Shown: positions 53,618 to 57,213, counted from the first letter of the stretch. The stretch: 64,000 nucleotides of DNA from an uncultured delta proteobacterium (GCA_963808625.1 CAWEHK010000026.1:1-64000); one strand, 5' to 3'. Numbers and translations are program-made. Notes: generated by a model not told the origin, from the sequence alone.

Positions 53618-54829
53618 TTAGACTTCGTCTTTGGCGGGCTTGGCGCGCATAAACTTCCCCATCTGGCGCAGGGCCTGGCGAAGTCTGTGTTCATTTTCCA
53701 CCAGCGCCAACCGCAGGTAGCCTTCCCCTTCCTCGCCGAAGCCAATGCCGGGAGCAACCGCCACATTCGCTTCATCCATGAGTTTAATCGCAAAGGGCAT
53801 AGAACCCATCTGGTCAAAGGGAGCGGGGATTTTGGCCCAAACGAACATGCCCGCTTTGGGCACGGTCACCGGCCAGCCGAGGCGCCGGAGTCCCCGGCAA
53901 AGGACATCGCGGCGCTGCTCATAAATCCTTGCCTGTTCCACGACCTCCGTGGCGCAATCCCGCAGCGCGACGATGCCCGCGATCTGAATGGCCGAAAAGA
54001 TACCATAATCATAGTATCCCTTGATCTTGGCCAGCCCCTGAATGATTTCCTTATTCCCCACGCAATACCCAACGCGCCATCCTGCCATATTGTATGACTT
54101 GGAAAAAGAACCAAATTCAACACCGACGTCCCTGGCCCCCGGCACCTGGAGGAAGCTTGGTGCGGTATAGCCATCGAAGGTGATCTTGGCATAGGCGAAA
54201 TCATGAATGATCATGAAGCGGTATTTCCTGGCCAAAGCAACGATCTCTTGAAAAAGTTCGGTGCTGGCCACGGTCGCCGTGGGATTATGGGGGTAGTTCA
54301 GGATCAACACCTTCGGGGTCGGATAGAGCGACTCGCACATGGTCGCAATGCGCGCCAGGAAGGTCTCTTCACTGGCCAGGGGGATGCGAATGACATTGCC
54401 GCCGGCAATGATGGTGGCATAGACATGAATGGGAAAGGCCGGCGTCGGCACCAGGACCGTGTCTCCGGGTCCGACCAGGGCCAAACACAGGTGCGAAATC
54501 CCCTCCTTGGAGCCAATGGTGCAGAGGACTTCCGTCTCAATATCCAGTTCCACGCCATAGTCCCGGCCATAGAATTGGGCAATTTCCCGACGCAGGCTGC
54601 GCAGTCCCGAAGCCACCGGATAGCGGTGACTCTTGGGGTCTTGCACCACTTCGCAGAGTTTCTGGGTCACCGCTTCGGGGGCGGGGTCGATCGGGTTACC
54701 CATCCCCAGGTCAATGACGTCGTGCCCCTGCGAACGTTTTTCCATCCTCATTTTATTGATCATCCCAAAAAGATACGGCGGCAATTGCTCCATGCGCTGG
54801 GCAAAGCGGATAATTGCATCTCCGGTCAT
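53618..54829 (-). CDS. alaC: Glutamate-pyruvate (alanine) aminotransferase AlaC-like
   Basis: LPPYLF, MGNP, TIGSKEG, PIHVY, HDFAY, SKSYNMAGWR, IKGYYDYG, FGEEG..YLRLALVENEHR match the AlaC/YfdZ pattern. Confidence 0.82.
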   Translation of the reverse strand: MTGDAIIRFAQRMEQLPPYLFGMINKMRMEKRSQGHDVIDLGMGNPIDPAPEAVTQKLCEVVQDPKSHRYPVASGLRSLRREIAQFYGRDYGVELDIETEVLCTIGSKEGISHLCLALVGPGDTVLVPTPAFPIHVYATIIAGGNVIRIPLASEETFLARIATMCESLYPTPKVLILNYPHNPTATVASTELFQEIVALARKYRFMIIHDFAYAKITFDGYTAPSFLQVPGARDVGVEFGSFSKSYNMAGWRVGYCVGNKEIIQGLAKIKGYYDYGIFSAIQIAGIVALRDCATEVVEQARIYEQRRDVLCRGLRRLGWPVTVPKAGMFVWAKIPAPFDQMGSMPFAIKLMDEANVAVAPGIGFGEEGEGYLRLALVENEHRLRQALRQMGKFMRAKPAKDEV

Positions 54830-54870
54830 GACTGTTTCCTCCTGTCTGCCTGTCTTGCTCCCGGTCAACC

Positions 54871-54902
54871 AAAAAGAAAACCCCAGGCCGCTTGGCCCGG
54901 GG
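54871..54902 (-). terminator. Intrinsic terminator (attenuator) in the alaC leader
   Basis: CCCCGGGCC-AAGC-GGCCUGGGG followed by UUUUCUUUUU, 41 nt upstream of the alaC ATG. Confidence 0.85.
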
Positions 54903-54958
54903 CTCAACGATGCCTTAGGCCGGCGGTTCAGCCCAAGGCTTTCGGTGGGTGCCTGCGG

Positions 54959-55042
54959 TTAATGAAACTCCAAGGCGCCAACCCTCACCCAGGCTATCCT
55001 GGCGGCGGCGGCCCATGCGATCGGTTTTGGAAAAGAGGTCAT
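54959..55042 (-). CDS. Putative alanine-rich leader peptide (27 aa)
   Basis: MTSFPKPIAWAAAARIAWVRVGALEFH*; GCCx4 at 55001-55012; AAGGA RBS; below the ORF-track length cutoff. Confidence 0.78.
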   Translation of the reverse strand: MTSFPKPIAWAAAARIAWVRVGALEFH

Positions 55043-55074
55043 CACTATTCTGTTCCTTTTGTTCTTTTTTATCA

Positions 55075-55103
55075 TTTTTACTGAATATTGAAGGCCTTGT
55101 CAA
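55075..55103 (-). promoter_or_regulatory. Putative sigma70 promoter of the alaC leader
   Basis: TTGACA-N17-TAAAAA on the minus strand. Confidence 0.65.
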
Positions 55104-55274
55104 TGAGCACATCGCATACCCCGCACTCACTTTTTGCGCCACCTCGAGCACTTTTTCTTGCCCTTCGGGTCGTTTTTATGTCTTATTCAGAAACACACAG
55201 GAGGAATGAACCTTGGATCATAGCGTTTTGACTGGATTGCCGATGGTCTTGCTCCATAGTTGGGAAGGGAATTT

Positions 55275-55733
55275 ATGATCGATAGACCGAAAAAATTCCT
55301 ACTGCTCATCGCGCTGGCCCTCGCCGTGGCAGCGCTTGTCTCCAATGTGTTTGCGCAAGTCGCAGAGCACATCATTGCCCAGGCTGCGGAATCTGCTGAA
55401 TCAGCACAAAGACCAAAACTGAGCCACGCCACCATGTGCGAAAGGGTCGATAACCTCAGCCCGACGCGAGCCGGCATCGTCTTTTCGGTCGCTAACGGCC
55501 AGGTTTGCTGTTATTCGTCATTTGATCCCGTGCCTCAGCCTACACTCATCTACCACCGCTGGTTCCACCGTGATGAATTGAGTACGCAGACCAGGCTGAG
55601 GGTGTATCCACCCAAATGGTCCACCTATAGCGTGATCCAGCTTCGGGAAACCGACAAAGGACCCTGGCGGGTGGAGATTACCGATCAGAACGGCCGGATC
55701 TTCAGTGTCCTGCGTTTCAGCATCACTGACTAG
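55275..55733 (+). CDS. DUF2914-like exported protein
   Basis: Signal peptide; IYHRW, WSTYS, GPWRVEI beta-sandwich pattern. Confidence 0.75.
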   Translation: MIDRPKKFLLLIALALAVAALVSNVFAQVAEHIIAQAAESAESAQRPKLSHATMCERVDNLSPTRAGIVFSVANGQVCCYSSFDPVPQPTLIYHRWFHRDELSTQTRLRVYPPKWSTYSVIQLRETDKGPWRVEITDQNGRIFSVLRFSITD

Positions 55734-55761: not shown

Positions 55762-57213
55762 ATGACAAGTTTTATCAAGTTTCTTTCAACCATTCGCTGG
55801 CAAGACCTGGTGGATATCATCATCAACAGCTATATCCTTTTCCGCGTCTATGTCCTCTTTCACGGCACCAATGCCTTTCGTGTGCTGGTTGGTATAGCCT
55901 CGCTCTGGATCCTGCAGGAGGTGGCGGCGTCCATGGGTCTGATTCTGACCAGTTGGGCGGTGCGAGGCATAACTACTGCCGCCGCGGTTATCATCATCGT
56001 CGTGTTCCGAAATGAGATCCGGTCCGCCCTCCAGGTTCGAAATCTTAAGACTTTTATCTGGGGGTCCCCCATCAGGGAACAGGCAACGCCTGTCGACATC
56101 GTGGTGCAAACAGTCTTCCAGATGGGCAAGAAGCGAATTGGCGCGCTGCTCGTTTTTCCCGGGAAAGAAGATCTGGGAGAGGACGTTCACGGGGGTATTG
56201 CCTGGTACGGAACGGTCTCAGCGGAGATGCTGCTGAGCATATTTTGGCCGAACAACCCGGTTCATGACGGCGCCTGCATCATCCGCGGCGACCAGATCGT
56301 CGAAGTGGGAGTGCTCTTGCCACTGTCCCAGCGAACGGACCTGCCCTCATATTACGGGACCAGGCATCGGGCAGCGCTCGGCCTGGCGGAACGAAGCGAT
56401 GCCCTCGTGGTGGTGGTCTCGGAAGAGCGCGGACGGGTGACCGCAGCCAAAGGCAACACGCTTATCCCGTTCAGCGAGCCGGAAGAATTGTCAAAGCTCA
56501 TCAAACGGCACCTTAACCTTGACGACGGAGTTCCCACAAATGTGCAGAAACGGGAACGCTTAAGACTCTCCTTCGCCGCCATCCTGTCTTTCCTGATCAT
56601 GACCGGCATCTGGTTCGGGTTCACCAGAAGCCAGGATACCATCATTGCCCTGAACGTCCCGATTGAGTACATCAACCGTCCGCTCGCCTATGAAATCCTG
56701 GACACTTCAACCGATGAGGCCCGCCTCCAGCTCTACGGCTCGAGCGCCCTGATCAAATCGCTGCAGCCGGGGCAGGTCCTGGTGCGCGTAGACCTTGACA
56801 AGGCCGTGGAAGGAAAGAATGTGTTTCCGATCACCCAGGACAATATCGTCCTGCCTCCGGGTGTGTTTCTCAATAAGGTACAGCCGTCCAATATCGATGT
56901 CAATCTTGATGCTCCGGTCACCAAGGAACTGCCGGTTCAGGTTGACTGGGCGGGAAAGCTGCCGGAAAACCTGAACCTGGTGAAGGTCAGTGTGACCCCC
57001 GAAACCGTAAAGGTCATCGGCGGCAGCCAAATCCTCGAACACGTCGGCACCATCTACACGGCACCGGTGCGCCTGGATAGTCTGCCCAAAACGGGACCCG
57101 TCACCACCACCCTGGTCCTCACCCCGCCATCTCTGAAATTGATTTCGAATGCAACGGAAAAGGTTACCGTCAATTATGTGTTGGACGGGAAGACCAATGG
57201 TGAGAAAAAATGA
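55762..57213 (+). CDS. cdaA: Diadenylate cyclase CdaA fused to YbbR (CdaR-like) domains
   Basis: Three N-terminal TMs, PVHDGA and GTRHRAA catalytic motifs, VVSEE.G, then a TM and two YbbR-like repeats. Confidence 0.9.
   Translation: MTSFIKFLSTIRWQDLVDIIINSYILFRVYVLFHGTNAFRVLVGIASLWILQEVAASMGLILTSWAVRGITTAAAVIIIVVFRNEIRSALQVRNLKTFIWGSPIREQATPVDIVVQTVFQMGKKRIGALLVFPGKEDLGEDVHGGIAWYGTVSAEMLLSIFWPNNPVHDGACIIRGDQIVEVGVLLPLSQRTDLPSYYGTRHRAALGLAERSDALVVVVSEERGRVTAAKGNTLIPFSEPEELSKLIKRHLNLDDGVPTNVQKRERLRLSFAAILSFLIMTGIWFGFTRSQDTIIALNVPIEYINRPLAYEILDTSTDEARLQLYGSSALIKSLQPGQVLVRVDLDKAVEGKNVFPITQDNIVLPPGVFLNKVQPSNIDVNLDAPVTKELPVQVDWAGKLPENLNLVKVSVTPETVKVIGGSQILEHVGTIYTAPVRLDSLPKTGPVTTTLVLTPPSLKLISNATEKVTVNYVLDGKTNGEKK

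Follow-up and report, generated by a model that had tools for sequence, protein, structure and literature searches.

The textbook set of attenuation signals comprises tryptophan, histidine, leucine, threonine, phenylalanine and isoleucine/valine. The leader of the his operon (hisL) in Escherichia coli and Salmonella combines a codon run with alternating helices (A:B, C:D and E:F versus B:C and D:E) and an intrinsic terminator; in the four-segment leader of the trp operon (trpL) the stalled ribosome covers segment 1 and so releases segment 2. The gauging of alanine in bacteria is mostly ascribed to protein regulators, or to an indirect loop through whiB7 in mycobacteria. Here we describe a leader in a 64,000-nucleotide (nt) stretch of DNA from an uncultured delta proteobacterium (GCA_963808625.1, CAWEHK010000026.1:1-64000; the whole stretch is hereafter the window) that carries four consecutive alanine codons ahead of an AlaC-like aminotransferase gene and is probably a his-type ribosome-mediated transcription attenuator, in which the stalling of a ribosome on the alanine codons would allow read-through.

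A precedent for alanine exists in the mycobacterial whiB7 'Ala leader', which, as far as the accessible text of the source goes, is an alanine-enriched upstream open reading frame (uORF) that controls the choice between terminator and antiterminator, with alanine shortage leading to more aspC (PMC10274678; cited again in the available part of PMC13236596). The sensing of alanine by a uORF, which a preliminary description of the window had treated as potentially unprecedented, is therefore not new in itself. Both leaders have an alanine-rich uORF, and alanine shortage ends, or in the window would end, in more alanine aminotransferase. Unlike the whiB7 uORF, which the same partial source describes as long, sequence-diverse and responsive to many amino acids and antibiotics (PMC10274678) and which acts through a transcription factor and indirectly on aspC, the window leader has a compact alanine run within a short frame, in cis to the aminotransferase. 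The gene behind it is an aminotransferase and not whiB7, so that the leader would work like the whiB7 leader without being a member of that group. The polycysteine leaderless short-ORF (open reading frame) attenuators of mycobacteria, in the available portion of their report, use a codon run to sense cysteine for downstream genes (bioRxiv 10.1101/834739); they share with the window leader a short frame with one amino acid's codon run and a place outside the textbook set, and differ in the amino acid, in their leaderless transcripts and in phylum. The alaS T-box riboswitch of Firmicutes, according to the accessible part of PMC4695836, senses tRNA-Ala charging and chooses between terminator and antiterminator; unlike the window leader, the T-box RNA binds tRNA directly, with no frame or ribosome, and no T-box match was found here. 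Within the full-text literature covered, from which most subscription journals are absent, no cis-acting alanine leader-peptide attenuator on an aminotransferase was found, only the whiB7 work, and the main text of PMC4833913 makes no mention of alanine, aminotransferase or delta-proteobacteria.

The locus consists of the following parts, in the order of transcription:

55098-55103, minus strand: -35 hexamer TTGACA, from the sequence and a promoter scan; kept in 8/8 genus members, including three without the leader
55075-55080, minus strand: -10-like hexamer TAAAAA, 17 nt after the -35 hexamer, with a predicted start site
55054-55058, minus strand: Shine-Dalgarno motif AAGGA of the leader frame, 11 nt before its ATG
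54959-55042, minus strand: leader reading frame of 27 codons plus TAA (ATG at 55042, TAA at 54961-54959), peptide MTSFPKPIAWAAAARIAWVRVGALEFH
55001-55012, minus strand: GCC x4 (segment A), the run of alanine codons predicted to act as the sensor; weak pairing possible with 54988-54981 (helix P0)
54981-54996, minus strand: segment 1 (segment B), UAGCCUGGGUGAGGGU, of which the 5' portion, 54996-54987, forms pairs with 54939-54937 and 54935-54929
54912-54939, minus strand: hairpin B, with 5' arm 54939-54929 (segment C), loop 54928-54923 and 3' arm 54922-54912 (segment D); 11 pairs
54894-54921, minus strand: alternative helix 3:4 between the hairpin B 3' arm and the terminator 5' arm (54921-54917 with 54898-54894 and 54914-54912 with 54903-54901; 8 pairs)
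54871-54905, minus strand: terminator hairpin C (54905-54878, segments E and F) with its T-tract to 54871
53618-54829, minus strand: class I/II aminotransferase, 403 amino acids (aa), AlaC-like, with AGGAGG before its ATG

The promoter scan of the leader called the site as TTGACA-18-AAAAAT (10/12 matches). Alanine accounts for seven of the 27 leader codons, and hairpin C is terminator-like (12 pairs, eight of them G-C, with a loop of 4, followed by TCTTTTTGGT), its T-tract ending at 54871, 41 nt before the aminotransferase ATG at 54829. The promoter, Shine-Dalgarno motif, 27-codon frame with its seven alanines and GCC x4, terminator with T-tract and 41-nt gap were all where the preliminary description had placed them. 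The gene for a DUF2914 protein (55260-55733), which is the upstream neighbour, is divergent, and hairpin C is therefore not the terminator of an upstream gene.

The leader recurs before orthologs of the same gene. Of 40 relatives searched at the protein level, 18 have a clear ortholog (74-93% identity), and all 40 have paralogs of ~52% and ~44% identity. The same leader stood upstream in 14 of the 17 complete orthologous upstream regions, with runs of 3-6 GCN codons, as would be expected of the alanine-run uORF foreseen by the preliminary description. A covariance model, R1, built from 15 leaders (MAFFT alignment A2), occurs just once in the window's own genome and has strong matches (E of 1.1e-16 or lower) in 24/96 genomes of the order, one per genome, 23 of them besides the window's; the same 24 genomes were recovered across the class (122 genomes), and no copy was found among 150 other genomes sampled from the phylum. 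Every strong match (24/24) ends 29-104 nt upstream of the orthologous aminotransferase, which is 70-93% identical in every case. Because the whole window leader folds with z = -2.2 against shuffles and recurs in 23 other genomes of the order before the same gene, its features are more than chance. Alanine runs were not found upstream of ~52% identical AlaC-like paralogs (0/12 loci), nor at the window genome's own paralog. Six weak R1 matches in the order (E 2e-4 to 9e-3), without an alanine run and not beside the aminotransferase, were dropped as tandem-terminator look-alikes.

A degenerate pattern scan of genome records returned at least 118 stretches; 15 true matches lay among the first 80 and 5 among the other 38, the remaining stretches being chance matches in G+C-rich genomes, and a weak match (L097) was rejected. 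Among the matches listed, the carriers were metagenome-assembled genomes (MAGs) of Syntrophobacteraceae, a Desulforhabdus isolate and a Desulfacinum MAG, and all but three of the true matches duplicated genomes already found (identical bit scores). Also among the matches listed, three Acidobacteriota MAGs (loci L086, L109 and L119) carry the leader before an ortholog of 70-73% identity, and in one Acidobacteriota order R1 was found in 4/76 genomes (G268-G270 and G342), a patchy occurrence that suggests horizontal transfer of the gene with its attenuator. A metagenome scan added 12 further leader loci. In all, 39 leader copies were collected, 35 of them distinct (alignment A3), and counts out of 35 below refer to this set.

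The leader frame has the marks of a translated sequence. A start of the alanine frame is present in all 35 leaders (ATG in 31), a Shine-Dalgarno-like motif precedes the in-frame start in 28, and in 34 the stop codon lies past segment 1 but ahead of hairpin B. By comparison, starts occur in 10/35 and 20/35 leaders in the remaining two frames, and Shine-Dalgarno-like motifs in 1/35 and 5/35. Within the alanine codons, positions 1-2 are near invariant and the third positions at columns 6, 9 and 18 use 3-4 bases, with the two central third positions of the run, which are paired in P0, fixed. The part of the peptide ahead of the run varies in length and sequence. By its codon-like variation and its one kept frame, the leader is judged to be translated, with its meaning in the alanine codons.

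The same observations bear on whether the reading frame might be incidental, with the conserved RNA responding to a factor that is not the ribosome: a small ligand, a protein or uncharged tRNA, for example. Segment 1 and the hairpin B 5' arm are nearly invariant, even at unpaired positions, and the full-length equilibrium fold proves independent of a ribosome mask, both of which such a factor would accommodate. The near invariance is, however, also expected for strands with two pairing partners, while the variation of the alanine run follows the codon period, only one frame has a conserved start, Shine-Dalgarno motif and stop, and no Rfam family matches at gathering score; we consider this explanation unlikely. 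At a permissive Rfam threshold (E up to 10) there were eight matches, all far under gathering score, with no bacterial cis-regulatory leader and no T-box among them, the best (E = 0.098) being to a eukaryotic long non-coding RNA.

Downstream of the alanine run, after 2-3 residues, the leader peptide continues with the motif A-W-A-x-V-G. Its conservation across two phyla in the form T/S-A-W-A-T/S-V could be taken to mean that the peptide itself is active, as a nascent arrest peptide or a trans-acting small protein, rather than that hungry alanine codons are sensed. The codons of the motif do not vary, however, not even at their third positions (columns 30, 33, 36 and 39), which points to RNA pairing and not to selection on the peptide, whereas the alanine run, by contrast, shows synonymous change; in addition, one metagenome copy (L189) has its frame shifted after the run and its RNA kept (assembly error being also possible). 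An active peptide is thus highly improbable. The frameshift in L189 comes from the loss of a single nucleotide immediately downstream of the alanine run, which places the stop inside the hairpin B 5' arm with the RNA helices intact; the loss is either genuine or an artefact of assembly.

RNAalifold on the plain MAFFT alignment predicted three helices, which are P0, hairpin B and terminator C, with P0 formed by the alanine run and GCGNCGGU, the 3' part of segment 1. In this terminated fold (P0+B+C) 94.3% of cells are paired over the 35 leaders and 10 pairs are changed on both sides, the cells paired being 97.6% for P0 (0/7 pairs changed on both sides) and 95.8% for hairpin B (3 pairs changed on both sides); hairpin C has 10 pairs in the alignment, 7 with changes on both sides. 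Two further helices exclude these. Helix 1:2, between segment 1 and the hairpin B 5' arm, has 10 pairs in the window and 9-14 in 35/35 leaders, encloses the region of the stop codon and pairs in 93.7% (A3) and 92.4% (MAFFT A2) of cells; helix 3:4 has 8-13 pairs in 35/35 leaders, with 89.4% of cells paired and 4/10 pairs changed on both sides. The alternative fold 1:2+3:4 pairs in 91.9% of cells on A3, compared to 24.8-46.0% with slid partners, and in 91.6% compared to 26.3-47.5% on the MAFFT alignment A2. Column 135 in the hairpin C 5' arm (G or A) co-changes with both column 109 in the hairpin B 3' arm (C or U) and column 148 in the hairpin C 3' arm (C or U), which is what would be expected of a strand with two alternative partners. 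The leader is thus a chain in which A:B (P0), C:D (hairpin B) and E:F (terminator C) alternate with B:C (1:2) and D:E (3:4). Covarying stems, which had been proposed as a check, were found for B (3 pairs), C (7) and 3:4 (4), with none for P0 and almost none for 1:2.

At least six T occur within 9 nt after hairpin C in 29/35 leaders. Hairpin B is followed by at least six T in 9 nt in 15/35, all outside the window's genus and not in the window; many leaders therefore have two tandem terminators, each covered by one alternative helix. In an acidobacterial and metagenomic subgroup (L182, L183, L185, L186, L086/L179 and L181) hairpin C is kept and is followed by GAATTCCCTGG-like sequence, and hairpin B is likewise without a T-tract. 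This subgroup may switch by another route (Rho or translation) or be in decay.

The preliminary description had proposed a leader-peptide attenuator with an alanine run before an AlaC-like gene, and this architecture held, with frame and stems conserved in the orthologous leaders; the switch that it drew within that architecture did not. In that scheme a stalled ribosome masks segment 1, and the hairpin B 5' arm pairs with the terminator 5' arm as an antiterminator (2:3; 54939-54926 with 54908-54895). Such a helix can be drawn in the window (duplex -17.3 kcal/mol) and in the window's genus is as strong as 3:4 (-16.6 to -19.4 versus -12.6 to -16.2 kcal/mol). Over the 35 leaders, however, only 68.8% of its cells are paired, a value reached by 225/500 shuffles and scarcely above a slide of +1 (63.7%), and two of its central columns never or almost never pair (0/35 and 3/34). 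The scheme also ignores hairpin B (54939-54929 with 54922-54912), overlooked at the time, which is adjacent, earlier to form and more stable; with segment 1 masked, hairpin B has a probability of 1.00 in the window and hairpin C of 0.96. Helix 1:2, given as AGCCUGGG with CUUGGGCU, was confirmed as a helix by the partial transcript, whose minimum-energy fold contains it, and was reassigned from the terminated to the read-through fold. Segment 1 must accordingly stay accessible when a ribosome stalls, as the conserved scheme needs, and not be masked, and the original switch is very unlikely to be correct.

Folding calculations agree in part with a switch governed by the ribosome. On partial transcripts, in all 35 leaders, helix 1:2 (mean -28.5 kcal/mol) was set against hairpin B (-22.1 kcal/mol; -20.6 kcal/mol in the window), and helix 3:4 (mean -15.4 kcal/mol) against hairpin C (-18.3 kcal/mol). 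For a transcript ending at the hairpin C 5' arm with segment 1 free, 1:2 was dominant in 23/35 and 3:4 in 22/35, and with segment 1 masked at the same transcript length hairpin B was dominant in 32/35 and 3:4 in 1/35. The full-length equilibrium ensembles of the window did not switch with masks at the first alanine codon, the last alanine codon, the alanine codon in segment 1 or the stop codon, B + C being dominant throughout; the fold with and without segment 1 constrained, proposed earlier as a check on the switch, likewise stayed at B + C at full length.

Under the his-type attenuation that we favour, a ribosome supplied with plentiful alanyl-tRNA would cross segment 1 and reach the stop codon, from which the inner 3' strand of helix 1:2 is a median of 12 nt away, and its passage over segment 1 would keep helix 1:2 from forming; hairpin B and then terminator C would fold, and RNA synthesis would end 41 nt short of the gene. 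A shortage of alanyl-tRNA would instead hold the ribosome on the alanine run, whose end lies 4-7 nt upstream of segment 1, so that segment 1 would remain free and P0 open. Helix 1:2 would form once the hairpin B 5' arm is made, before the B 3' arm, which would then pair with the hairpin C 5' arm (3:4) and exclude terminator C. The aminotransferase would be made and alanine restored by transamination of pyruvate. Like hisL, the leader has a run of one amino acid's codons in a short frame and a chain of helices ending in a terminator, and stalling on the run is proposed to open the first helix and pass the change down the chain; unlike hisL, it concerns alanine and a single aminotransferase gene rather than a pathway operon, hairpin B of window-type leaders is terminator-like in 15/35, giving tandem terminators, and there is no sequence or Rfam similarity. 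With trpL it would share the ribosome-mediated choice between terminator and antiterminator and a stop codon positioned such that terminator formation is favoured while a ribosome occupies it. Unlike trpL, it has six segments rather than four, and its segment-1 helix lies in the read-through fold, such that the stall must be upstream of segment 1.

The position of the stall also admits the opposite logic, in which stalling on the alanine codons leads to termination and alanine sufficiency induces a catabolic enzyme. A ribosome with the last alanine codon in its A site reaches the first 2-3 nt of segment 1, two more alanine codons lie inside segment 1, and transaminases are reversible. A ribosome that does not stall would also cross segment 1, however, favouring B + C, so that there would be no translated read-through state, and we give this inversion very little credence.

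Within the window's genus the leader has been naturally removed. In 3/8 species (loci L003, L004 and L005 in genomes G006, G004 and G005, respectively) it is cleanly absent from the start of the mini-gene to past the terminator; the promoter and the leader Shine-Dalgarno region are kept and joined, after TTTT, directly to the AGGAGG of the aminotransferase. The joining of promoter to gene identifies the promoter upstream of the leader as that of the gene, and the deletion marks the leader as a dispensable regulatory insert. Separately, the ortholog is recovered by tblastn as two neighbouring fragments in different reading frames, with the break at ~codon 102 in G001 (L018/L033) and at ~codon 34 in G002 (L007/L032); these are either frameshifted genes or MAG assembly errors.

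The best NCBIfam match of the window enzyme is to the alanine transaminase AlaC (NF006033 / PRK08175; 519.4 bits, under the cut-off of 647), with DapL models ranking next (TIGR03540; 457.8 bits, under the cut-off of 593.25). The same genome has a separate paralog on contig 37 that passes the DapL cut-off (TIGR03540, 618.8 versus 593.25) and a second paralog on contig 23 that scores 636.4 bits against the alanine transaminase model, above the window enzyme. The nearest solved structure is 2x5d, an uncharacterised 'probable aminotransferase'. By these profile matches the window enzyme is AlaC-like and not DapL, as had been supposed, while the plain name AlaC given to it was too strong; we infer its role in alanine formation from the leader.

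Several observations weigh against the proposed attenuator. Changes on both sides occur in only 2/14 pairs of helix 1:2 and 0/7 of P0, such that the support for these two helices is conservation plus G-C to G-U changes, as judged from the alignments, and not covariation. At full length with the stall mask, hairpin B is still dominant in 27/35 leaders and hairpin C in 26/35; as B + C dominate once the C 3' arm is present, whatever the mask, read-through would have to depend on kinetic trapping. The window leader itself has hairpin B dominant at every stage, with a probability of 0.00-0.01 for 1:2, and P0 is weak (probability 0.02). Fewer than six T follow hairpin C in 6/35 leaders (one cut by a contig end), including the acidobacterial/metagenomic subgroup without an evident T-tract, and the L189 copy carries its 1-nt deletion after the alanine run. 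The 35 leaders represent approximately ten genera and a few acidobacterial lineages, and the cell counts overstate the number of independent events. The enzyme, for its part, lies below the family cut-off with a closer AlaC-like paralog in its genome, and its part in alanine formation is a prediction, as are termination, read-through and any response to alanine.

Other features lie around the leader. Between its promoter and the DUF2914 gene, a minus-strand block of ~37 nt (55152-55188) consists of GAATAAGACATAAAAA, ~10 nt and GGGCAAGAAAAA, and is kept in 8/8 genus members, including the three without the leader; it could be a plus-strand promoter of the divergent gene or an operator common to both genes. 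Window ORFs opposite to or overlapping the leader (54203-55084 plus strand, 54949-55209 plus strand and 54915-55151 minus strand) had no Pfam match. Farther upstream, a 483-aa ORF at 55762-57213 (plus strand) fuses a diadenylate cyclase (DAC) domain with YbbR repeats; DAC and YbbR are usually two separate genes (cdaA and cdaR).

The switch is compact and testable and is absent from Rfam, and the loss of the leader in three sister species, together with its presence in two phyla, provides ready-made comparisons. If correct, a direct alanine-codon attenuator would extend the classical mechanism to a further amino acid, and would provide a function call for a poorly resolved AlaC-like clade that falls below all family cut-offs and stands beside a true DapL and a second AlaC-like paralog. 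On balance, we are inclined to regard the leaders as the first family of cis-acting, alanine-specific, classical leader-peptide attenuators: a compact cassette of promoter, alanine-run mini-gene, six-segment chain with one or two terminators and aminotransferase, which would gauge tRNA-Ala charging directly, would mark a starvation-induced, alanine-forming transaminase of the syntrophic and sulfate-reducing Syntrophobacterales, and may have moved as a unit into a lineage of the Acidobacteriota.

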